From a virus: a stretch of DNA of 64,000 nt. Numbering within the stretch: the first letter of the stretch is position 1; the number at the start of each line of letters is the position of its first letter. Location: IMG/VR virus record IMGVR_UViG_3300036768_001490, positions 96,001 through 160,000 of that record. One strand, given 5' to 3'. Both the position numbers and the translations under genes were made by a program. The notes beneath the pieces are model-generated. The model made no database searches. It was not told where the DNA came from and was given only the letters and a program-made list of their open reading frames with translations. Positions 31,247 to 62,586 of the stretch are shown piece by piece.

Positions 31247-32442
31247 GCAACCCCCAGATGACGTGCCGGCGAAGAGACAGACAGACCCCCCGAGAGCATG
31301 CCCGCCTTGCGGGCCAGCTCCTGCAAGCGGTCGTGCGGCGGGTCAAGCTCCGAGATCATGGTGTAACACTGCAAACCATCGTCGTCGCCCGGGTAGATGC
31401 CGCGGTGGATGACGGTGGGGCGGCCGTCCCCCTCCGGGTAGGCGGAGCCGACAATGCGGTCCAGCATGGTGAAGCCGGCGGCAAAAAAGTCCTTGCTGAA
31501 GGTGTGCAGCACCTCCCGGCTCCCCACGAACACGCAGGCCGCCTTCCTGCCCGTGCGCAGGTCCACCTGGGCCAGGACGCTCTCGGCCAGCTGCTCGCGG
31601 ATGGCCGTGGAGATGTCCGCCGGCCCCTGGACCCGGTCCAGGGGAATGTCCGCCGAGCCCATGACGACTACGCCGCCGTCCAGCAGCTGGGCCAGCTCGC
31701 TGCGGTCAAAGGTGATGTACGGGCTCTTGCAGGCCGCCAGCTGGTTGAACAGGTGAAGCAGCCGGCTGACCAAGAAGTTGCTTTTGGGCAGCAGCTCGCC
31801 CATCGCCGGCTGGTACAGGGAATGCACACGGTCATTGTCAATGACAACCAGAGGGCTGACCCGGTCGGCCAGCAGCTCGCGGAAGGCCGCGACCGCGTTG
31901 CGACAGACCGTCTGGCCCTCGTCCACGGACGGCAAGGACACCAGCGCGCCGACACGCGGCGTCTGACCCTTGCTCTCCATGTACTTCCGGGCCAGCCGAA
32001 CCAGTGGCAGCGCTGTCCCCGAGCCCGTGCCGCCGCCCAGGCCGACACAGATCAAGGCATAGTCCAGGTCGTTGCCCCAGGCGCGCTGGAAGAGTTCCCA
32101 GACCTCCTCGTCGCGGCCAGCGAGCGCCTGCCGCGCCCGCTGCATGTCCTTCATGGCGCCGCCGGTGCCAAGGGACAGCAGGGGCACCTTGGGGTCGATG
32201 CCGTCACTGTCCTGGTCGGTCGTGTTGAAGGTGCCAACGCGACGGTAGCCCAGCTCCCAGAAAGCGTGGGCCATGCGCCCACCCCCCTGGCCGGTGCCCA
32301 CGAAGGCCAGACGGAAGGCCGTGTCGTAGGGGAAGGAGTCGTGGATGACGACCTGGCGGGCCGCCGGCCGGTGCGCGGCCGGGCTCAGGCGGGACGCCAG
32401 GTTGCCGAGGCCGACAGGCGCGGCCGCCGGCCCACTCTTCAC
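31243..32442 (-). CDS. tubulin/FtsZ-family GTPase (PhuZ/TubZ-like)
   Basis: FVGTGQGGGR; signature GLGGGTGSG; IDND; FDRSEL; GTG start after GGAGGAGG. Confidence 0.88.
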   Translation of the reverse strand: MKSGPAAAPVGLGNLASRLSPAAHRPAARQVVIHDSFPYDTAFRLAFVGTGQGGGRMAHAFWELGYRRVGTFNTTDQDSDGIDPKVPLLSLGTGGAMKDMQRARQALAGRDEEVWELFQRAWGNDLDYALICVGLGGGTGSGTALPLVRLARKYMESKGQTPRVGALVSLPSVDEGQTVCRNAVAAFRELLADRVSPLVVIDNDRVHSLYQPAMGELLPKSNFLVSRLLHLFNQLAACKSPYITFDRSELAQLLDGGVVVMGSADIPLDRVQGPADISTAIREQLAESVLAQVDLRTGRKAACVFVGSREVLHTFSKDFFAAGFTMLDRIVGSAYPEGDGRPTVIHRGIYPGDDDGLQCYTMISELDPPHDRLQELARKAGMLSGGLSVSSPARHLGVA

Positions 32443-49724: not shown

Positions 49725-50363
49725 TCAGCAGCTACGCTTCTCGCGCTGGCGGCGGACGTACTCCGCCAGCAGCAGGGCCTCGGCCCGACCGTGGTCCTTC
49801 TTGCGCATAAGGCCCGCGCTGGGAAAGAGGGACATGGCCTTGAGCCGGCTCGCCTCCTTGTCCTTGCCCAGCAGGCCCAGGCTGCGCTTCCACACGTTCG
49901 GCCGCACGTCCTCGACGGCGTAACCCTTGGCGTACAAAAACAGGGGCCACAGGCCCCAGGAGCGGTTCAGCACCGCCTCGGCATAGCGCCGACCGGGGCC
50001 CAGACTGCGCGGCACCTCCTCCAGCCCCACCGCCACGACCCTGGAGCGGGCCGGCTCCAGGGCCTGGAAAATGTCGCAAATGAGGCCGAAGTTGTACATG
50101 GTCGTCGAGCCATGGACCGTCCGCGTCTTGTGGCCCGTCTCCGCCTGCTCCTGGGCGCTGACGGCCCGGGAGCGCCGGACAGAAACCACGATGACAGGGA
50201 TGTCCACCACGGCGCAGCTGTTCCCGCACAGGAAGCCGATGGCCCCCTGGGCGCCCGGGTCGATGCCGATGTAGACGCCGGCGCCGTCCGTCCTGGCCTG
50301 CACCTCCTCCACGAAATGTCGGACCACTTCCTCCGGCCCCGCCGCTACCTTACCGTCCGTCAT
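49725..50363 (-). CDS. RuvC-like Holliday junction resolvase
   Basis: YIGIDPG; VGLEEV; WKRSLGL..KDKEASR; DHGRAEALLLA. Confidence 0.85.
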   Translation of the reverse strand: MTDGKVAAGPEEVVRHFVEEVQARTDGAGVYIGIDPGAQGAIGFLCGNSCAVVDIPVIVVSVRRSRAVSAQEQAETGHKTRTVHGSTTMYNFGLICDIFQALEPARSRVVAVGLEEVPRSLGPGRRYAEAVLNRSWGLWPLFLYAKGYAVEDVRPNVWKRSLGLLGKDKEASRLKAMSLFPSAGLMRKKDHGRAEALLLAEYVRRQREKRSC

Positions 50364-50431
50364 GTCCTTTCTCCTCCACCTAGACCAGGCACACTGCTAG
50401 AGACGATACCTACCCAGAAAGACAGGCACGG

Positions 50432-51358
50432 CTAGCTGTTCCGCTGTCCACGCAACCGGGACGGGAGCCCTCCGGCCACCGGGGGAGAGTCCGCGCCGGG
50501 TTCCTCTCCCTCCATGCCGCCGTCCAGGGATTCCGGCAGTGGTCCCGCCACGGCCGTTGCCGGCAAGGGCAAGGGGGCGCCAGGCAGAAGGAGCGCCCGG
50601 TACTCTTCCATCAGCAGCCGGCAGCACAGCGCGTCGGTCAGGGCACTGTGCATCTCCTGCCGCGCGATGCCATGCTTCTCCCCGAAGCGGTACTTCTGGT
50701 AGCAGTGCCGGTCCAGGTTGGAACGCACGCCAGGCGAGCGCGCCTGCTGCACCCTCTGGAAGTAACTCCGCAGCGTGTCCCCCGGCAACGGATGCACCCT
50801 CCTGTCACCAACCAGCTGGTTCGCCTTCTCGATGGCCGCCGTGTCGAAGAAGCCGTTGTCGTCATAGCGGAAGCCGTCCGCGATGCAGAAGCCGGCAAAA
50901 TTGCCGTCCAGCATCTGCTCGTCGAAGGACGCATGGTGCGCTACGAAGGGAATGCCGGCTTCCCGCACGCGGGCGAGCACGTCCCGGATAAAGGACAGGG
51001 CCTCCTCGGGACGGCGTCCCTCCGCCTGCATCCGCTCGTACGACATGGAGAAGGTTCCGCCCGCCAGCTCTATCTGCCGCTGCGCCGTCTTCAGCCTGCC
51101 GCGCAGCCAGTCATCCGGGACGGTCTTGTGCCGGGTCCAGTCCAGGACCAGCGTGACCTGCTCCTGGACCTCGCCGTCGCGCACCAGGCAATGGCCCCAT
51201 TCCGTGATGACGTCCAGGCCCGGGTCGAGGCCGGTCGTCTCCACGTCAATGGCGCAGTAATCCACCGGCCAGCTGCCGCCGTACAGGGCGCGGAACCACT
51301 CCGGCCAGTAGTTGACGATGCAGTCAGGCAGGCCCGTGACGCCGTCAGGTGTCTTCAT
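50432..51358 (-). CDS. DEDDh 3'-5' exonuclease (DnaQ-like)
   Basis: AIDVETTG; VAHHASFD; HSALTD. Confidence 0.88.
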   Translation of the reverse strand: MKTPDGVTGLPDCIVNYWPEWFRALYGGSWPVDYCAIDVETTGLDPGLDVITEWGHCLVRDGEVQEQVTLVLDWTRHKTVPDDWLRGRLKTAQRQIELAGGTFSMSYERMQAEGRRPEEALSFIRDVLARVREAGIPFVAHHASFDEQMLDGNFAGFCIADGFRYDDNGFFDTAAIEKANQLVGDRRVHPLPGDTLRSYFQRVQQARSPGVRSNLDRHCYQKYRFGEKHGIARQEMHSALTDALCCRLLMEEYRALLLPGAPLPLPATAVAGPLPESLDGGMEGEEPGADSPPVAGGLPSRLRGQRNS

Positions 51359-51980
51359 AGGAGTTGCTGTCCCACAGGGCCCGCCAGGCAAGACGGCAAC
51401 GGCGCCAGAAATGGTAAAGACGCCGGCGCCAGCGCGGCAGGACCATCAGCTTGGCACAGCGCATGCCGTACCAGCGCAGGCGACGGTAATGCAGGGCCGG
51501 TCCCTTGCCATTGATAGTGGCCTCGCGTACGCCTGCCCAGTGGTAGCCGAGCACCACCGTGCCCAGATAGGCAGCGACCACGACCCGGGCATACGGGTCC
51601 GCGTCCAGAAAGCCGCAGCGGGCCATGCCTCCTGCCATCGACTCCTTGGGGTCGTCCGCCTGGGTGGCGATGAAGCGGCACAGGCTCTGGCAGCAACGCC
51701 CCACCTCCTCGTCGCTCACCTTCTTCTCCCGCAGCAGTTCCTGGAGCGTGTCCCACGTCCCGTCCTCGCACCGCCGGGCGACCTCCTGGATCACCTGGCC
51801 GAAGTTGTGCGCCACGTCCCGGCTGACGTTGTACAGGCGGGGGTCGTGCGGGCTCATCCTGGCGTTGAGCGTCAAGGTCCACTCCTCCTGGTCTTCCAGA
51901 CCATGCCGGCACAGGCAGAAGAGGACACGGGCCTGGCCGGCGCAGGCGGCATGGTACACCTTCCCGCGGCGCCTGTCCAC
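51345..51980 (-). CDS. hypothetical protein
   Basis: ORF coupled to the exonuclease start. Confidence 0.55.
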   Translation of the reverse strand: MDRRRGKVYHAACAGQARVLFCLCRHGLEDQEEWTLTLNARMSPHDPRLYNVSRDVAHNFGQVIQEVARRCEDGTWDTLQELLREKKVSDEEVGRCCQSLCRFIATQADDPKESMAGGMARCGFLDADPYARVVVAAYLGTVVLGYHWAGVREATINGKGPALHYRRLRWYGMRCAKLMVLPRWRRRLYHFWRRCRLAWRALWDSNSYEDT

Positions 51981-52068
51981 AGAGGAAGCGCACCCGCTAT
52001 CCGCAGTCAGGACAACGAAAGGCCCCTGGCCATGTTCCGGCCAGGGGCCCGCGCCGCTCCCGCGCGCC

Positions 52069-52968
52069 TCAAGGAGCAGCTACTTCGTCTTCGGGCGCGC
52101 TGCACCCTTCCGTCCCCCCGACTTGCCCTTCCCCGTTCCTGCAGCCGCGGCAGGGCCGGTCTTCTTCGACTGGCCGACTACCTCCCCGGCCGCATCCTTC
52201 ACTACACGTGCCCGTGCTGACATTATCTTCCTCCTTGGCCAGTTCATGCCTGGCCTGCAAGAGCCGGTCCAGCTCCGCCTGCAAGTCATCTGGTTGCTGC
52301 AGGTCCACAGGCCGTAGACTCGGCTCAAACCTGCGCTGGGAGTGGCCGGGCAAGTTGCTCCGTTCCAGCACCAAGCGCTCTCGGAACCCGAAGGGGAACC
52401 GTTCCCCCCGGGGAATGACCCAGAGGTAGAACTGGTTGGCAGTGTCCACCAACCGGTCCTCCGCCGGGTACAGCTCACATGCCTCGTAGTCAGGGCCAAC
52501 CAACTCGTTCTTGATCCTTTGCAAGTCCCTCCAGTCGTGCCGGGCGCTGTTGTCCATGTCCCGGATGGAAAGACGGACACACTCCATCGTCTCCTTCCCG
52601 CCGTCCCGGCCTACCACGGGCACATCGAAGCGACCCACCTGCACCAGGTAGCGCGCGTTCTGGTAGAAGCGCACGTCCTTCCATTCGCCCCCGTAGGCCA
52701 GGTACAGCAGAGCGTTCCGCGAACCGTCCGTGTTGCCCAGCCGCCGGGCCAGAGGGCTCGATACCTTGCCGGTCACTTCCACCCACGGCGTCCACTCCGG
52801 CCGGGAGTCGTCCAGGATCTGCTGGACGTGCGACCGCAGGTCTGGAGCGCACCGCAGAGCGCGGGACAGCTCCAGCTCCAGCTTCTTCCACTCCTGCGCC
52901 GGCTGCTTCTTCCGGTTCCTCTCCCGGTGGTATCTTTGCCGGTCCCTCCGCCGCTTGCTGACACCCAT
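52069..52968 (-). CDS. phage hypothetical protein (DUF7694-like C-terminal domain)
   Basis: RLSIR....HDWRDLQRIKNELVG..EACELYPAEDRLVDTANQFYLW. Confidence 0.65.
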   Translation of the reverse strand: MGVSKRRRDRQRYHRERNRKKQPAQEWKKLELELSRALRCAPDLRSHVQQILDDSRPEWTPWVEVTGKVSSPLARRLGNTDGSRNALLYLAYGGEWKDVRFYQNARYLVQVGRFDVPVVGRDGGKETMECVRLSIRDMDNSARHDWRDLQRIKNELVGPDYEACELYPAEDRLVDTANQFYLWVIPRGERFPFGFRERLVLERSNLPGHSQRRFEPSLRPVDLQQPDDLQAELDRLLQARHELAKEEDNVSTGTCSEGCGRGGSRPVEEDRPCRGCRNGEGQVGGTEGCSAPEDEVAAP

Positions 52969-53061
52969 CGGACCACCCTCCTCCACCCCCACGGGACAGA
53001 CCCAGCGCAGACAGTGCCGCGCCGCTACCAGGCCCCAGCAGGCCAGGCAACCCGCTCCGGC

Positions 53062-55185
53062 CTACCCTCTACCTCTCCGCCCAGGGCGCCGCGCGTCCGC
53101 GGCAGCGTTCTCCTCGTAGCGCCGGTCCAGCTCCTCCGCCAGCTGGTCCGAGGTATAAAAGCGCAGCGCCTCGGGATGGCCCGCATCCAGCTCGTAAGGC
53201 TGGTGCTTCATGCCAGCGACCTCCAGTAAACCATCATACATGAACTCCCTCGCGTCAGCGACCATACCTGGATACTTTTTCTTGACGATCTCGTACACCT
53301 GGCCGAAGATGACGCGCATCTCCCACTCGCTGGACCGGTGCGTCCGCAAGGCGATGACGTGCCGCAGGGCGCGGATGTTACAGGACATCCCCATCTCATT
53401 GGCCAGTCCGCAAGGCAGGTAGCGCCGCAGGGCAGAAGTGATCTTCTTCCGAAGACCCGGCGGCAGCTCCAGCTCGCCGTCGCGCCCCGGGACCATGCCC
53501 AGATGCTCCGCCTCCCAACGAGCAATGTCCAGGCCGACCTCCTCGACCCCTGCCAGGACCGCCAGGGCGGCACGCAGACGGGCGAAACCGTTCAGACCCA
53601 TCCGGTCGCACCACAGACGGTAACTTGCCTCCAGCCCCTCCGCGTGGCTGTCCAGCAGGTGCTGGATCGGCTCCAGGACCGGGTCCGCAACCAGGCGAAG
53701 TTCGGCGCCACGGCAGTACCGCCCGGACGTCTGGCTGTAGGCCCAGCCCGCCCGGTGCCGGACCTGCTCGTGCGTGTTGCCGCACCAGAACGGCCGACCC
53801 GAGCCGCGGACGTAGACCAGACCGTCCTGCGTGCGCGGACAGTATACCTCGCCCCGGTAGGACAGGGTGAACTGCTGCTGCGGCAGCACCTGGAAGCCAG
53901 CGGCGGACGGGCGCAGCGGGCCCACCCGGTAGCACGTCTCCACCGCCGATCCACCCGTGCCACCGTCCGGGTGCTCCACGCCAAAGACACAGGCATGGGG
54001 GCAGACAGAAACCGGCGCGTCCAGTCCCAGCCTGGCCGCCAGGTACTGCCACTGGCCCGCGACGGCCGGGTTGGCGCAAAACAGCCAGTGTCTGCCCGCG
54101 CGGCCATGACCGGAGGCGATGCCCGGGCTGCCGACCACGGCGGCGGCCAGAAAGCGCCGCAACAGCCGTGCCTCCGCGTCCAGCAGCCAGCGGCTGAAGC
54201 GGCGCAGGGAAGGACCCGCGCCCACGTGCTGCTGCACGAAGCGGGCCAGCTCCGGGTCGTCCACCGTGAAGCAGAACTTCTGCTGCACAGGGCACGGTCC
54301 GCTCCGCTGCCACCTGCCCGGGAACAGACCGGACAGCAGGGAATGCAGTGAAGTCAGCACGGGCGAGGACACGCCGGCGTGCAGGAACACCCGGTCCGGA
54401 CAGGACTGCGGGACCACGCCGTCTGCCGCCACGAACCCTAGCCAGGAAAAGAACGGTCCCGCCGGGTAACAACGCTCCCCCACGCGCACCGTGTCGCCAT
54501 GCCAGTCATCGTCCTTGACAATGCGGTGCTGCAGGACAAAGGCTTTCCCCGCCACCTGGGAGACAGGCAGCTTGCGCGCCTGCCGCACGGCAAGGTCCGA
54601 CGTCAGGCAGGCGGACTCCTCCGGACAAGGAGCCGCCCAGAGGAGATGGTCCGGTGTCAGCAGAGGCGACACGCACTGGTGGGTGGCCCAGCCGTGCAAG
54701 CTGCCCTCGTACGGAAAGACATGCATCGACAGGACCGGACGCCAGTGGGCCAGGCGCGTGTCCGGGTCCAGGGTCAGCACCACGTCCCCCGCCCGCAGCT
54801 GGGAGACCCGGCGCCAGCCGTCCTCGGCCATGACCTCCGCGTCCGGGTGGTAGCAGTAGACCCGCGAGCAGTCTGTCACGACAAAGTTCAGGGAGAAGTG
54901 CTCGAACACGGAGCCGTGTCCCTGAAGCAAGGTGGCCCGGACATTACGGGCAATGTCGCGCACCTCCTGGACGTTGTCGTTGCGACCGGGAACCAGAGTC
55001 TGGTAACAGAGCTTGGCGTAAAACGACGACAGGATGTCTCCGTCGTTCAGTCCCAGGGACCGCGCCTCCTGCACGGCACGCAGGAAATCTTCCTGTCCCG
55101 TGTACGCGAGGTACTCCTTCAACCCCTCCATGTCGATGCCAGAGTACCCGACCAGAAATACCTTCGGCTGCACCCGTTTCGCCAC
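53062..55185 (-). CDS. thyX: flavin-dependent thymidylate synthase containing an intein
   Basis: GHGSVFEH; after splicing SRVY|THEQVRHRAGWAYSQTSGRY (RHRx7S); R..LP.G...NIRALRH..R; GTG start at 55185. Confidence 0.92.
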   Translation of the reverse strand: MAKRVQPKVFLVGYSGIDMEGLKEYLAYTGQEDFLRAVQEARSLGLNDGDILSSFYAKLCYQTLVPGRNDNVQEVRDIARNVRATLLQGHGSVFEHFSLNFVVTDCSRVYCYHPDAEVMAEDGWRRVSQLRAGDVVLTLDPDTRLAHWRPVLSMHVFPYEGSLHGWATHQCVSPLLTPDHLLWAAPCPEESACLTSDLAVRQARKLPVSQVAGKAFVLQHRIVKDDDWHGDTVRVGERCYPAGPFFSWLGFVAADGVVPQSCPDRVFLHAGVSSPVLTSLHSLLSGLFPGRWQRSGPCPVQQKFCFTVDDPELARFVQQHVGAGPSLRRFSRWLLDAEARLLRRFLAAAVVGSPGIASGHGRAGRHWLFCANPAVAGQWQYLAARLGLDAPVSVCPHACVFGVEHPDGGTGGSAVETCYRVGPLRPSAAGFQVLPQQQFTLSYRGEVYCPRTQDGLVYVRGSGRPFWCGNTHEQVRHRAGWAYSQTSGRYCRGAELRLVADPVLEPIQHLLDSHAEGLEASYRLWCDRMGLNGFARLRAALAVLAGVEEVGLDIARWEAEHLGMVPGRDGELELPPGLRKKITSALRRYLPCGLANEMGMSCNIRALRHVIALRTHRSSEWEMRVIFGQVYEIVKKKYPGMVADAREFMYDGLLEVAGMKHQPYELDAGHPEALRFYTSDQLAEELDRRYEENAAADARRPGRRGRG
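53776..54855 (-). mobile_element. intein (360 aa) with a partly degenerate LAGLIDADG region, in thyX
   Basis: Starts CYHPDAEVMAEDGW; TPDHLL block B; WLGFVAADG; ends VYCPRTQDGLVYVRGSGRPFWCGN followed by Thr +1. Confidence 0.92.
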
Positions 55186-55216: not shown

Positions 55217-56332
55217 TCAGGAGACAAAACCCACGCTGACAGGCTGGAACGGCACGGTGCCGTCCGCCGTGTCCACGTACTCCGAGAACCGCACCCGCAG
55301 GGAACGTCCCACGTAACCTGCTGCCTGCTCCGCAAAGGCCATCTTCTCTTCCAGACTGCGCCCGGGGGCCAGCACGTCGAAGTAGTTCCCCTCGTCCGTG
55401 GCGCAGACAAAGACCGGCACGCCGGCGTGCCGGCCACGGCCCAGCTTGTAGTCCTCGACCGGAAAGGCGCGGTCATGCACCGGCACCAGCTGGAGCAGGT
55501 ACGGACTGCGCCGTCCGCCCTCGTAACCCGCCGCGCCGTGCCGCAGCATGGCCCCCGTGTGGCCAGCGGCCAGAAAATAGGACTGGGCCACCAGCAGTTC
55601 CTGGTGCGAGCGCACCTTCACCAGCTCAGCCAGGCGGACACAGCGGGACGCCCCCGGGCAGCGCGACCCCAGCAGTCTGCGCAGGTCGGCATGCCGGGCC
55701 AGGAACCCCTTGGGGGACACGAAGTCACAGGCGTGGTAACACACCCGCTCCATCTCTCCCGGCAACGGATGCCGCTGAGGACCCGATACCAGGTTGGCAA
55801 GGGCGGCCACATCCAGGTCGGGATGGCACAGCACGCCGTCCAGCGCCAGCACGCCCTCCTTGCAGCCGGCCGGACCCAGGGCTTCCGTGACATGGGGCAC
55901 GCACAGGACGCGGCCGTCCGCAGAAAAGGCCAGCGCCCTGCCTTCCACGAAACGCACCAGACAACGGACGCCGGCCAGCCTCGGCTGGGCGACCGCTGTG
56001 GACCAGTCAATCCGCCGCATCTCCTTGTGGTAAGGGACCGCTAGCATCGGCTCCTCGGCCCGGGTCGAAGTGACACCGCGTAGACACTTACCGTAGCCCA
56101 AAGCGCACTGGCGCTCCCAACGGGCCAGCGCCCGAGCACACGCGGACGCATAGGGGGACATGCCCCTTTGCCACGCCACGACCTCCTCGCGGACCGTGTG
56201 CTTCTTGCCTGCCAACGGACCGTAGCGTGTCAGGACAGTGGCCCCGGCAGCGGAAGCCTCCACCCATATCTTCCACTCCAGGATGCTGCCGTCCGCAGCA
56301 ACCTTGTACAGGCGAGGAAATGACCTTCTCAT
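55217..56332 (-). CDS. ATP-dependent DNA ligase homolog with WGR-like N-terminus, catalytic motifs lost
   Basis: QPRLAGVRC (normally QPKLDG.R); LDGVL; HTGAMLR; RSPYLLQL; C-terminal OB-like LRVRFSEY...PFQPV. Confidence 0.8.
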   Translation of the reverse strand: MRRSFPRLYKVAADGSILEWKIWVEASAAGATVLTRYGPLAGKKHTVREEVVAWQRGMSPYASACARALARWERQCALGYGKCLRGVTSTRAEEPMLAVPYHKEMRRIDWSTAVAQPRLAGVRCLVRFVEGRALAFSADGRVLCVPHVTEALGPAGCKEGVLALDGVLCHPDLDVAALANLVSGPQRHPLPGEMERVCYHACDFVSPKGFLARHADLRRLLGSRCPGASRCVRLAELVKVRSHQELLVAQSYFLAAGHTGAMLRHGAAGYEGGRRSPYLLQLVPVHDRAFPVEDYKLGRGRHAGVPVFVCATDEGNYFDVLAPGRSLEEKMAFAEQAAGYVGRSLRVRFSEYVDTADGTVPFQPVSVGFVS

Positions 56333-57414
56333 TCCTTGCTGTTTCGGTAAGCGTCCCGGTTAAAACAATCCACGCAAACGTCCGACGGCAGCTCCTCGTC
56401 AAACCAGGAGTCGGCCCGCTGGCACCGCTGGCAAAACCCGCTCGTCCAGTTGTGCTTGTGCTTGCCCGCCTCACACTCCAGGTATCCGACCGGACAGAAA
56501 TGGCACGGAAAGCTGGGAGGGTGTCCCTGCGGACAGGTGAAGCCCGGGTCCACCCGGAACGTCCGTCGCAGCTGCAACCTGTTCCACGCACGCACGCCAG
56601 AAGGAAAGACGCGCTGCTCCAGTCGGACACGGCCAGTTCCATCCACGGCCAGCGGAAAGGTAAATCCAGGGTCGCGGCCGCACAGCGCTGGATCGACCAG
56701 GCCGTACAGGCGGAAGCCGACCAACTGCTGGGGGGCCTGGTACGGGTAGCGCACCTCGCGGAGGTGACGGCGGACCTCGAAGCCAGCGCCGCAGGCCAGC
56801 AGGCGGCACATCCCCTGCGACAGCCATTTCCGCACGCGCCGCGGGCAGGGAGAGCCGGCCAGCACACGGAAAGTGTACGTGGACCCCAGGGACTGCCGTA
56901 CCTTCCTCCGCCAGCAGGCCGTGACCGCCAGCGGCACCCACTCCCGGATGCGCTGGACCTGCCACGGCGGCACCGGCCTGTACTTGAGGCGCGGAACGTT
57001 CCCGGCAATGCGCCAGGCCGTGTCGTCCGCCAGCTCCGGCGTCATGCGCCGGCCAGCCAGATGACGCAAGGAGTCCTCCACGAAGGACCGCCTGGACTCG
57101 TCCCGTGTAAACTCCTTCGGCAAAAAGGCCAACACCGTCTGCACCAGACGAGTGAACTCCTCGCCGCGCGGCGTGCAGTGGTTAAAGCCAGTGACCAGGG
57201 CCAGACGCAGCTCCGCCCTGGTCTTCAGTATCCTCTCAATGTTGTAGTTGTGAAAGAAAGCCGGCGGACCATCCCCTGGCCGCCCCAGAGACCGGCCATC
57301 GGTCGTCACTGTGCCACATGCCTTCCCTTCTCGTTCTCCACCACCAGGGCCGGACTGCCTGCAAGCAGGGACCATGCAGGCTACCATCTCCCCGGCTGAT
57401 CCCATCCTGCCCAA
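56329..57414 (-). CDS. hypothetical protein with a Cys-rich C-terminal zinc-binding region
   Basis: CPQGH..FPCHFC; CQRC; CVDC; start uncertain. Confidence 0.6.
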   Translation of the reverse strand: MGRMGSAGEMVACMVPACRQSGPGGGEREGKACGTVTTDGRSLGRPGDGPPAFFHNYNIERILKTRAELRLALVTGFNHCTPRGEEFTRLVQTVLAFLPKEFTRDESRRSFVEDSLRHLAGRRMTPELADDTAWRIAGNVPRLKYRPVPPWQVQRIREWVPLAVTACWRRKVRQSLGSTYTFRVLAGSPCPRRVRKWLSQGMCRLLACGAGFEVRRHLREVRYPYQAPQQLVGFRLYGLVDPALCGRDPGFTFPLAVDGTGRVRLEQRVFPSGVRAWNRLQLRRTFRVDPGFTCPQGHPPSFPCHFCPVGYLECEAGKHKHNWTSGFCQRCQRADSWFDEELPSDVCVDCFNRDAYRNSKE

Positions 57415-59253: not shown

Positions 59254-60186
59254 CTAGACGACGGCCTCCTTCCGCGTCAGCTTCTTTTTCTTCTTCCTGT
59301 CCAGGCTGCCGTTCTTCTCCACCTGGCAGTTGCCTGGCGCTGCCTTGCCACTGGTAGCTACTACCCCCAGGCCATTATCGGCGTGGCGGGAAGAGTTCCC
59401 TTCCCGCGCGCGCAGCACGCCGCGCACGCGGCCCGCGCTCTCGTCGATAAGGGACACCATCCTCTTGGCCCTGTCCAGCATCTCCTGGACCTCCTCCCGG
59501 ACCTGCTGCAACTTCTCCAGCAGCCCTTCCGTGATCCGGTCCGGCTCCAGCTCCTTGATGGTGCCGAAAACGGCTTCCTCCGCCGCCGCCTCGTAGTTGT
59601 TGAATCTCTGCGCCAGGTCGAATGCCTTTTGCAGGCCGACTACCGGGTTGGTCGGCACCGTAGGCAGACGACCGCCATGCCGCGCGTTCTTGGTCTTGCC
59701 CGCCTCCCCGCTACGGACCTCCCGTTCCAGCTCCTTGGCACTCAGGGAATGCTTGATGACCCGCTCCAGCATCTTCTCCTGTGCCGCGCGGTCGCGCAGC
59801 TTCATGATCTCGAACCAGTGCGACACCTCCATGTGCCTGCCATTCGCCATCGGCCGCGACGTCCACTCGTCCACGAACTCGATGGTGAACTCCTGGGCGA
59901 AGTTACGTAGCTTGTAAAGCGTGGTCGCGCCACCCGGGATATTGTGGTACTCGGCCAGCTGCTTGACAGCGCCCGAGCCGTACTTGGCCTCGTCGGCCAG
60001 GATCTGGGGTATCTCGGACCCTATCATGTAGTGGACGCGCACCATGACGCCGGCGCCCTTGCTGAGCAGTCCACCCCAGCGCCGGGCCACCTCCTGGGTA
60101 GCCGGCGTCATCTCCCGGAACACCTTGAGGCGCTCCCGCCCCACCACAGTACCGCCCCCCGCTGCTGTTGCTGTTTTCTCGGACAT
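59254..60186 (-). CDS. DUF1016 N-terminal-like (YhcG-like) DNA-binding protein
   Basis: YMIGSEI...KYGSGAVKQLA; TLYKLRNFA; VSHW; SLSAKELEREV. Confidence 0.6.
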   Translation of the reverse strand: MSEKTATAAGGGTVVGRERLKVFREMTPATQEVARRWGGLLSKGAGVMVRVHYMIGSEIPQILADEAKYGSGAVKQLAEYHNIPGGATTLYKLRNFAQEFTIEFVDEWTSRPMANGRHMEVSHWFEIMKLRDRAAQEKMLERVIKHSLSAKELEREVRSGEAGKTKNARHGGRLPTVPTNPVVGLQKAFDLAQRFNNYEAAAEEAVFGTIKELEPDRITEGLLEKLQQVREEVQEMLDRAKRMVSLIDESAGRVRGVLRAREGNSSRHADNGLGVVATSGKAAPGNCQVEKNGSLDRKKKKKLTRKEAVV

Positions 60187-60277
60187 GGTTCATCCTCAGT
60201 GAGTAAAACAAAGTCATGGTCAGTGACCGTGCCCATACAGTCAATGTACAGAACGCCGTCACCAAAAACCATGCCTT

Positions 60278-60856
60278 TCAGTCTTCCGCGCGCCAGCCCG
60301 CCTGGTAGATGCCCTCCACGACGTTCTGGAAGAGACGGACATAGAGACGGCTGCCCGTGCCAGGGTCGCTGTGAACCAGGGACAGCCCCCGGTAGGGGAC
60401 CGCGGCCAGCTCATCGTCCGTGACCAGCAGGCCATGCCGCACCCCCCGGCGCGGAAACACCAGCCCGACTGCCCGCGCCCCCAGCTCGTCAACCTCCAGG
60501 GACGCACGGAACCGCTCGTATGCCTGCACGAACGGCGCGTCCCGGAACCGGCGGAACAGCGCCGGCAGCATGGCCCTCGGGTCCAGATGCAACCTGACGC
60601 AAGGCAGCTCATCCGCCCCCAGAAGGATGGGAAAGGATGGATACAGGTCGTTGAAGGCGCGCAGGGTCAGCCACGGCCGGCCGCTGCGACGCTCCTCCTC
60701 CTGCCGCAGCTGCCGCACCGCCGCGGGCGTCAGGCGCAGGGCCCTGACCAGGAAGCGGACCCTTCCCTCCTCGTACTGGGCGGCACGAAACTCCTCCTCT
60801 CGACCCGACCGAGCGCCCAGCAGGCGGCGAAACGGATGGTTGGTATCTTTCTTCAT
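60278..60856 (-). CDS. hypothetical protein coupled to recA
   Basis: ATGA overlap with the recA stop. Confidence 0.6.
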   Translation of the reverse strand: MKKDTNHPFRRLLGARSGREEEFRAAQYEEGRVRFLVRALRLTPAAVRQLRQEEERRSGRPWLTLRAFNDLYPSFPILLGADELPCVRLHLDPRAMLPALFRRFRDAPFVQAYERFRASLEVDELGARAVGLVFPRRGVRHGLLVTDDELAAVPYRGLSLVHSDPGTGSRLYVRLFQNVVEGIYQAGWRAED

Positions 60857-62520
60857 GGCATGTCCCTGGCCAGCTGGCCCAGCTGCTCCAGATAGTCACC
60901 CGCCAGGACTGGACGGCGGTTGATGCGCAGGGCACAGCGCAGACGGTCCAGCAGCTCCCGGTCCTCGCGGATCAGGGCGCCGACGTCAGACCAGGGCATG
61001 GCGTCCTCCCGCTTCATGCCCAGCGACCTGGACCAGGCCAGGTTCTCCACCTCGGCCGTCTTCGGACATTCGAGGTGGAAGTCGATGTCCTTGAGGGCCT
61101 GACGGAAACGGGGGTTGGCCCGCTCCCCGTGCATGAGCGTGTACAGCAGGTGGACCGTGGACCAGTCCCAGTCCCAGGCGGTGCGCTGCTCCCACTCGCC
61201 ATCTTCGTTCTTCTCGTCCCACCACAGCAGGCGGGTCTGGATGCGACGGTGGGTCGGACCAAAGCTGTTCTTCTCGCAGCTGATCTCCACGGGAAAGCCC
61301 TCGAAGTTGGCGCACGTGATGACCTTCTTGTGCCCGCCAACCTTCTTCAGCTCCAACTCGAACGACTCCTGGAAATTGACCTGCTCGCCCCCCGCCTTGG
61401 AGCGCTCCACGTTGCCCGCATCGTCCGTCTTGATGCGCAGATGGTTGACCAGCACCAGGCTGAACGGCCACTCGTCCAGCTCCCCCGGAATGGTCCGCAT
61501 GTAGCGGGTAATCTTGAGAGCCTCGATGGGGAAGCCGCGAGAGGCAGCACCGTCCCCCGTCGTGCCTCGCTGACCCGTCCGCCGGTCCAGCTTGCCCAGG
61601 ATCGCCTCCTGCGTCTCCTCGCTCGACTTGCCCATGATCGAGTCCACGCCGTACAGCACCGGGATGGTACGCCCGGGGCCGGGAGACTCCTTGCTCCCCT
61701 CCATCCCGGCCTTGGTGCTCTGGATACTGAAGCTGAGCTTCCGCTGCCAGTCCTCGACCGACTTGCAGCGGGCCAACGGCATCATGTCGAAAAACTCCTT
61801 ACCCAGGATCGACCTGTACCAGTTCGGATTGAACTTCGACTCGGCCTCGTTCAGGTACATGCCACCCCCGGCCAGGAAGAACCAGCGGCCGAACTCTGCC
61901 AGCAGGCCCGACTTGCCGACGCCGTGGCGGGCCACCAGCTGGAACACCAGACCCAGCGGGAAGCCGTCCTGCGCCAGCACGAACTCCATCGGCAGACAGC
62001 CAGGATACCTGGCAGCAGCCTCGCCGTGGCCAGCGTACATGGGGATGCAGATGATGAGAGCGTCCGCCTCGCTGCCAACATAGACGCTCTTGTGGCCAAA
62101 CTTCTTCCGTGCCAGCTCTGCCTGACCACGGAAGAAGGCGTCCAGGGCCTTGCCCCGGTTCCGCCCCTTCCAGTCCGCCAGGCGCGCCTCGTCCTTCCGG
62201 CTGAGCTTGCGCTGGTCCAGGGAAATGACCCGCCGCCGGACAACGTTTCCGCCTCCAGCGCCCTTCCCCGAGGATCTGCCAAGGTCGTCAGACCCAGGAG
62301 GAGCAGCCCACTTGCCCAGGTCCAGAAGGTCGTCGCCCAGCTGCTGGCCGGCAGGAGCAGAAGGCAGTGCCTTCCCTGACTCCTCCGCGCCAACATCCTG
62401 GCCGTTCAGCACCTTCCCATCCGCGTCCGATCCCTTTCGGACCTTCCCCTTACTGCTGGCCCGCCGGCGTCCGCCCAAGACAGATGGTCTTCCGGTGGGG
62501 TCACGCTTCTTACCTGCCAT
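60853..62520 (-). CDS. recA: RecA-like recombinase with a long N-terminal extension
   Basis: GFPLGLVFQLVARHGVGKS (Walker A variant); YLNEAE; GVDS; LVNHLR; AGGEQVNFQES; KNSFGP. Confidence 0.8.
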   Translation of the reverse strand: MAGKKRDPTGRPSVLGGRRRASSKGKVRKGSDADGKVLNGQDVGAEESGKALPSAPAGQQLGDDLLDLGKWAAPPGSDDLGRSSGKGAGGGNVVRRRVISLDQRKLSRKDEARLADWKGRNRGKALDAFFRGQAELARKKFGHKSVYVGSEADALIICIPMYAGHGEAAARYPGCLPMEFVLAQDGFPLGLVFQLVARHGVGKSGLLAEFGRWFFLAGGGMYLNEAESKFNPNWYRSILGKEFFDMMPLARCKSVEDWQRKLSFSIQSTKAGMEGSKESPGPGRTIPVLYGVDSIMGKSSEETQEAILGKLDRRTGQRGTTGDGAASRGFPIEALKITRYMRTIPGELDEWPFSLVLVNHLRIKTDDAGNVERSKAGGEQVNFQESFELELKKVGGHKKVITCANFEGFPVEISCEKNSFGPTHRRIQTRLLWWDEKNEDGEWEQRTAWDWDWSTVHLLYTLMHGERANPRFRQALKDIDFHLECPKTAEVENLAWSRSLGMKREDAMPWSDVGALIREDRELLDRLRCALRINRRPVLAGDYLEQLGQLARDMP

Positions 62521-62586
62521 TGCCCTCACCCCCGTGGGGCCAAGCGGAGCAACAGTGTCGCTCCGCTCGGCCCAGGTCAAAAGATC

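Follow-up and report, generated by a model that had tools for sequence, protein, structure and literature searches.

Gene content of the locus

The window, that is, the whole 64,000-nucleotide stretch of viral DNA analysed here, comprises bases 96001-160000 of an IMG/VR record (G000) that is linear, 182,719 bp long and estimated to be 84% complete. At the locus of interest, the gene for a homolog of ATP-dependent DNA ligases (P0001) lies between the gene for a Cys-rich protein, immediately upstream, and an interrupted gene for ThyX, downstream, all on the minus strand (Table 1); a preliminary description made from the sequence had given no strand for the ligase gene.

Table 1. Features at and around the ligase locus (positions are those of the window unless marked G000).
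Feature	Position	Strand	Basis or remark
Predicted catalytically dead ATP-dependent DNA ligase homolog P0001 (CDS, 371 aa)	55217..56332	minus	phrog_114 homology, alignments
N-terminal beta-rich domain (about residues 1-92)	56057..56332	minus	homologous to the N-domain of Felix-O1/LAh-type ligases; within the ASFV match
Nucleotidyltransferase (adenylation) domain (about residues 93-284; motifs I, III, IIIa, IV, V)	55481..56056	minus	alignments, model
OB-fold domain (about residues 285-371)	55220..55480	minus	PDB alignment, model
Motif I, P117-R118-L119-A120-G121 (ccg agg ctg gcc ggc) replacing P-K-L-D-G; adenylylated Lys replaced by Arg	55970..55984	minus	DNA, alignments
Motif III, D165-G166-V167 replacing D-G-E	55832..55840	minus	alignments
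Motif IV, T259-G260 replacing E-G; R264 kept	55553..55558	minus	alignments, PDB alignment
Motif V, Q281-L282-V283 replacing K-x-K	55484..55492	minus	alignments, PDB alignment
Cys-rich protein, translationally coupled to the ligase	56329..57273 (ORF open to 57414)	minus	conserved neighbour
ThyX (flavin-dependent thymidylate synthase, Thy1) interrupted by a Hint/intein module	53062..55185	minus	probable GTG start at 55185 after GGGGGAGGG
Replication/recombination module	49725-52992 and 59254-62580	minus	Holliday-junction resolvase (phrog_1770), DnaQ-like exonuclease (phrog_192), DUF7694, DUF1016_N nuclease-like protein, weak UvsX-like recombinase match
Tubulin-family gene	31813-32307 (G000 127813-128307)	minus	PF00091, 43 bits, above cut-off; inside a 456-aa open frame
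Multisubunit RNA polymerase beta-type domain	G000 83545-84510	minus	PF00562, 172 bits; 1767-aa open frame, about 11.5-12.5 kb before the window

The P0001 reading frame consists of 371 codons, is open under translation table 11 with zero internal stops, and has a GC content by codon position of 0.71/0.51/0.80, the GC3 of 0.80 resembling that of the flanking genes. Its ATG overlaps the stop codon of the upstream gene (ATGA; ..AAGGAATGA..) and is preceded by AAGGA as a ribosome-binding site. The IMG gene call (P0004, 55217-56017) is a truncated form of 267 aa that starts at M105, drops the N-terminal domain and leaves the gene unnamed; we favour the 371-aa form because residues 8-95 are homologous to the N-domains of ligases and because of the ATGA coupling. 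The same 371-aa protein, without a single difference, is encoded in an independent Logan assembly. We weighed sequencing error, a frameshift and an alternative genetic code as explanations and dropped all three: table 11 gives an open frame, the differences fall in six separate codons, and the Logan assembly agrees. The preliminary description had called the frame intact and had argued from the number of substitutions against sequencing error, and both statements held up.

Downstream, the apparent 259-nt overlap between the long ORFs of the ligase and ThyX is probably not real, because ThyX most likely starts at the GTG. The Hint/intein module within ThyX is roughly 380 residues long; the ThyX of a related contig, L008, is also long (645 aa), and those of L007 (273 aa) and L038 (333 aa) are of ordinary length, with no space for an insertion. 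Elsewhere in the record are the genes for a tubulin homolog, which we take to be PhuZ-like, as in nucleus-forming jumbo phages, and for a multisubunit RNA polymerase; a multisubunit RNA polymerase and a tubulin are traits of phiKZ-like jumbo phages. A search of G000 for the nuclear shell protein of phiKZ, chimallin gp54, gave no match.

Homology and loss of the catalytic motifs

P0001 is a true homolog of the phage ATP-dependent DNA ligases. It matches phrog_114 (ATP-dependent DNA ligase) at an E value of 6e-22; in Pfam, the whole protein matches zero families at E≤0.1, and PF01068 reaches only 11.8 bits, which is under its cut-off. Word-index searches, with either P0001 or an alignment of the dead clade described below, returned almost solely P0001 itself, and relatives were obtained by an exhaustive HMMER search alone. 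That search yielded 3344 homologs (1286 of them at E≤1e-10), the nearest of which is 42% identical to P0001; the nearest ligases of cultured phages are 26-28% identical. When related loci were sought with P0001 as the single query, zero were found, and with the alignment as query the search returned active ligases having the shared IDW..AQP motif, together with the L008 contig that was already known.

The AlphaFold2 model of P0001, made from an 80-row alignment, has a mean pLDDT of 91.8 and a pTM of 0.80. Its top solved match in Foldseek is the African swine fever virus (ASFV) ligase (6imk; E 3e-24, TM 0.70, about 415-419 columns), and the match spans the N-domain, the adenylation domain and the OB domain of P0001. 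Other matches are the Chlorella virus, Lig E, T4 and human Lig1 ligases, all of them, ASFV included, at E values of 1e-10 to 3e-24. Both the model and the Foldseek matches place an adenylation (NTase) domain before an OB domain, whose core residues F290, C310, G315, F318, G342, P361 and P364 are kept. The protein is thus the full-length ligase homolog that it had been taken for from sequence, on the strength of the phrog_114 match and of the structural match to a three-domain ligase. One earlier label has to be withdrawn: the N-terminus had been called WGR-like, and, besides the empty Pfam result for the whole protein, the N-domain aligns to the N-domains of phage ligases and falls inside the ASFV match. 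Within this domain, a loop conserved in active relatives (GKNxGxxNETTPxxQA) is degraded in P0001.

The register of the catalytic motifs was set by alignment with the ligases of Aeromonas phage LAh_8, Felix-O1-like phages and T7, as well as with 149 homologs, and the PDB alignment to the ASFV ligase agrees with it for motifs IV and V. Read from the DNA, positions 55987-55964 are cag ccg agg ctg gcc ggc gtc cgt, or Q P R L A G V R. Among the aligned rows, K of motif I is present in 142 of 150, E of motif III in 141 of 150, E of motif IV in 144 of 150, and both K of motif V in 143 of 150; the active rows have, at positions 118/120/167/259/281/283, K (100%), D (86%), E (100%), E (100%), K (100%) and K (100%). 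All four replacements listed in the preliminary description (RLAG, DGV, TG and QLV) are real, being placed by the alignments and, for RLAG, legible in the DNA. The covalent nucleotidyltransferase mechanism needs the Lys nucleophile, the carboxylates of motifs III and IV and the lysines of motif V. Because these are gone from P0001, neither adenylylation nor sealing is to be expected of it under the established mechanism, and we infer that the protein is unable to carry out either.

Relatives with the same loss

For the comparison with relatives we used the best 150 of the 3344 homologs, taken as representatives of 50%-identity clusters. K118 and E167 are both missing in seven of these best 150 (P0001, P0009, P0023, P0059, P0088, P0037 and P0131), a count that leaves out two fragments and one partial sequence; for brevity, the seven are referred to as dead. 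Position 118 is occupied in them by R, R, L, D, M, M and I, and position 167 by V, D, A, V, V, S and F. Such differing replacement residues are the pattern that drift at positions freed from constraint should give.

In the maximum-likelihood tree, five of the seven, P0001 included, form a clade (SH-aLRT 95), and the remaining two fall with P0005, which looks active. A tree constrained to unite the seven is worse by 7 log-likelihood units but is not rejected by the AU test (p 0.43), so that one or two losses fit the data; the topology is to be taken cautiously, since long branches and unusual composition were flagged for several of the dead rows. End branches of the dead members are somewhat long (0.59-2.3 versus a median of 0.94), which is consistent with relaxed constraint. 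Because the loss is common to diverged relatives at one locus, KxDG is not kept by all homologs, and the catalytic loss is, as far as these alignments can tell, not a recent decay. Its probable placement before the divergence of the dead members rests on parsimony.

Residues kept in 6-7 of the seven dead proteins are G121, R123, D165, G166, D203, R213, G257, G260, R264, Y270, F290, C310, F318 and P361. Outside the catalytic centre, residues conserved in the active ligases are eroded, with S137/R138 kept in 1/7 and H147 in 3/7, and the N-domain is wholly absent from at least three dead relatives (P0023, P0037 and P0131). A conserved motif specific to the dead set was considered and rejected: the candidates V238, K239, D294 and K296 are also found in the nearest active ligases. 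As every residue conserved in the dead set is shared with active relatives, the set has no positive signature of a new function.

These residues bear on whether P0001 might still be an enzyme that uses a non-canonical nucleophile or cofactor. Such an activity would suit the intact fold and the pocket residues that are kept (G121, R123, D165, G166, D203, G260 and R264), but the metal and phosphate ligands E167, E259, K281 and K283 are all missing in P0001, and the variety of residues at position 118 means that there is no shared nucleophile there. Moreover, the sole lysines conserved across the dead set, K239 and K296, lie outside the motifs and occur in active relatives. We regard a surviving enzymatic activity as extremely unlikely.

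Genomic setting

Neighbourhoods were compared among metagenomic phage contigs with readable flanks, among them L007, a contig of 213 kb, and L040 and L041, which carry P0005 and P0006, respectively. The Cys-rich gene (about 275-325 aa) is found immediately upstream of the dead ligase in G000, L006, L007, L009 and L038, its products being 35-47% identical to one another, and it also lies directly upstream of the active-looking P0005 and P0006 (31-47% identity). ThyX is encoded downstream of the dead ligase, with a few small genes between, in G000, L007, L008, L009 and L038. In G000, L007 and L038 the order is collinear over a longer distance, beginning with genes for UvsX-like, 192-aa, DUF1016_N, 268-aa, 144-aa, 154-aa and Cys-rich proteins ahead of the ligase and continuing after it, with other genes interspersed, through ThyX and DUF7694 to a DnaQ-like exonuclease and a Holliday-junction resolvase. 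P0005 and P0006, which are the nearest active-looking ligases, share the lineage-specific residues VKV and D-x-K-x-G-RG with the dead set. Since these two have the same upstream gene and the same lineage residues, the dead proteins are in-place descendants of the lineage's own ligase rather than a separately acquired paralog.

The Cys-rich protein carries nine invariant Cys/His residues in its C-terminal 60 residues, and its model (pLDDT 75) has a core that is weakly OB-fold-like. Structural matches of the model are weak, namely CsaA/Trbp111 (Z 5.5, the maximum), PrgE, the OB domain of LigA (Z 4.5) and DUF669/SSB-like rows of BFVD. Searches of cultured phages, Pfam and PHROGs, and of the ESM Atlas by features, gave no match to it. 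It may be a Zn-containing ssDNA-binding protein. A complex prediction for the Cys-rich protein and the dead ligase scored 0.00; run as it was without controls, it carries weight neither way.

The setting is also relevant to a possible part in conflict with the host, in which P0001 would be a counter-defence or host-takeover factor, that is, a dominant-negative ligase mimic that occupies DNA breaks or ties up a host factor by which ligase is sensed or needed. Phage ligases matter in conflicts with DNA-targeting nucleases (bioRxiv 10.64898/2026.09.21.753257). Decoys of the pseudoenzyme type are frequent in conflicts of this sort. However, the gene sits at the ancestral ligase locus, in a conserved core module of replication and recombination rather than in a variable anti-defence island, and the present data hold no link to any defence system; a function of this kind is very unlikely.

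Evidence on selection

Crude tests, based on codon position, neighbouring genes and open frames, were used in place of dN/dS, as the pairs are too diverged and their synonymous sites are saturated. In codon alignments between dead members, the excess of identity over the compositional expectation is 0.21-0.44 at positions 1 and 2 versus 0.01-0.18 at position 3. The active-active pair L040/L041 resembles the dead-dead pattern, with excesses of 0.49, 0.51 and 0.14 by codon position. The pattern shown by these alignments is typical of coding selection. When G000 is compared with related contigs, identity is 33-40% for the dead ligase and 27-58% for the neighbouring proteins; on these figures the dead ligases are conserved about as well as the genes beside them. 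The dead frames, of 260-371 codons, are open in contigs of 33-72% GC. The test for purifying selection proposed in the preliminary description had a mixed outcome: conservation is seen at codon positions 1 and 2, with position 3 close to random, and frames are intact in low-GC contigs, but omega was not obtained because of the saturation.

It could be argued that P0001 is a slowly decaying relic, either an unbroken pseudogene or a gene under weak residual constraint, with no new role because the LigA of the host suffices. Such a history would agree with the disappearance of all catalytic and of several non-catalytic conserved residues, with the deletion of the N-domain in several relatives, with end branches that exceed the median and with a set that has no conserved residues of its own. 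A relic would not, however, be expected to leave seven diverged representatives with open frames, even at 33% and 42% GC, where stops arise easily, and the conservation of codon positions 1 and 2 against a saturated position 3, the similarity in conservation to neighbouring genes, the confidently predicted fold and the retained translational coupling all speak against it as well. We consider decay without a new role to be quite improbable.

Discussion

That P0001 is a selected, catalytically dead ortholog of a ligase with a non-enzymatic role appears quite probable to us, and the fuller account, in which a real gene descended in place from a ligase, lost its chemistry and has been kept under selection for a non-catalytic role, appears probable. 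On this account, an uncultured lineage of jumbo phages had an ATP-dependent DNA ligase of its own from which the gene would descend, and the chemistry of all three ligation steps would have gone with the Lys nucleophile, the acidic residues of motifs III and IV and the lysines of motif V. Purifying selection at the protein level would keep a folded, ligase-shaped protein inside the replication/recombination module, nick sealing would be left to the NAD+-dependent ligase of the host, and the retained protein would bind duplex or broken DNA, or else a replisome partner, perhaps the coupled, OB-like Cys-rich protein.

The assignment of sealing to the host follows from what was found in the record. 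No second ligase was detected in G000 (182.7 kb, 84% complete) with PF01068, PF01653, phrog_114 or PF09414, so that the search for a separate active ligase, which had been recommended at the outset, returned none of the ATP-dependent, NAD-dependent or RNA-ligase families. As P0001 is not expected to seal and no other ligase was found in the record, the NAD+-dependent ligase of the host would be the simplest sealer; since the record is 84% complete, a further ligase could sit in the missing ∼16% of the genome. To our knowledge, all bacteria have LigA.

What the retained protein does is less clear than that it is retained. The suggestion that this is a repurposed pseudo-ligase stands as far as "dead and retained" goes, given the shared loss, the same locus and the conservation by codon position, but the particular roles put forward with it (nick protector, recombination scaffold or decoy) did not find support. 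DNA or nick binding as the non-enzymatic role is plausible, though we would put it at somewhat below an even chance. Net charge is positive in 6/7 dead proteins (range -2 to +13, versus an active median of +4), and together with R123, R213 and R264, which are retained in 6-7/7, this suits DNA binding. Loss of the SR motif, of H147, of the N-domain loop and of whole N-domains weakens the DNA- or nick-binding version, and canonical nick recognition or encirclement would be doubtful because S137/R138 and the N-domain loop are lost and the N-domain is missing in several dead relatives.

Alternatively, P0001 may bind proteins, as an adaptor or regulator, and bind DNA little or not at all; its ligase fold would then offer a docking surface to a clamp, to the ligase of the host or to the OB-like Cys-rich protein. 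The pairing with the Cys-rich gene is invariant across active and dead lineages, with overlapping stop and start, conserved residues of the DNA-contact type are eroded, and an interaction between the T4 ligase and the clamp, cited in PMC7824862, offers a precedent. On the other hand, the positive net charge in 6/7 dead proteins and the retention of the basic R123, R213 and R264 would better suit a protein that binds nucleic acid, and we judge the adaptor unlikely, although far less so than the conflict-related function considered above.

A non-catalytic role, if true, would mean that the ligase scaffold is useful apart from sealing, and it raises the question of how a phage of roughly 200 kb, with its own tubulin and multisubunit RNA polymerase, joins its Okazaki fragments. 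Broader still, jumbo phages may repeatedly have turned their own DNA ligase into a non-catalytic accessory factor that binds DNA breaks or belongs to the replisome, with a coupled Zn/OB partner and with an imported or recruited host ligase doing the sealing. We offer this generalization tentatively, as it is rather unlikely to hold in full; if true, it would define a previously unrecognised class of phage replication pseudoenzymes. In the literature searched, we found no description of naturally occurring, evolutionarily retained dead DNA ligases in phages. Automatic annotation would call such genes "DNA ligase" or, as IMG did here, shorten them and leave them unnamed. Because active and dead orthologs occur at one locus with a common partner gene (P0005/P0006 versus P0001/P0009/P0023), comparative biochemistry is feasible.

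Comparison with known systems

The closest known systems are the phage ATP-dependent ligases with an N-terminal beta-rich domain (phrog_114; the Felix-O1-like and LAh_8 ligases; P0005/P0006), which P0001 resembles over its full length, with 26-42% identity and the same order of three domains; P0005/P0006 also share its locus and its upstream partner gene. Unlike the phrog_114-type ligases, P0001 has the catalytic residues of motifs I, III, IV and V replaced and its N-domain loop degraded. AsfvLIG (PDB 6imj/6imk/6iml/6imn) is the best structural match and also ranks first among PDB entries by sequence over the OB domain and motifs IV-V, but the identity is only 18%, and AsfvLIG is an active repair ligase whereas P0001 is without an active site.

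Two non-catalytic systems are instructive. A standalone ligase DNA-binding domain (DBD) occurs in ligase-less phiKZ-like jumbo phages, where it has been proposed to recruit the host ligase (Iyer et al. 2021, PMC7824862). Like P0001, it is a non-catalytic, ligase-derived protein in a jumbo phage without an active ligase (for the phage of P0001, none found in a record that is 84% complete); it differs in being an alpha-helical DBD only, whereas P0001 keeps the adenylation and OB domains and is without the helical DBD, and for both proteins the role is a proposal. Catalytically inactive DNA ligase IV (K273A and similar) still supports end joining, with another ligase sealing (PMC9638927, PMC3549972, PMC11754673), and serves as a working analogy for P0001, namely a non-adenylylating ligase that acts structurally. 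Dead DNA ligase IV, however, is a laboratory point mutant within a eukaryotic complex with XRCC4/Ku, whereas the loss in P0001 is natural, involves multiple residues and has been retained in evolution.
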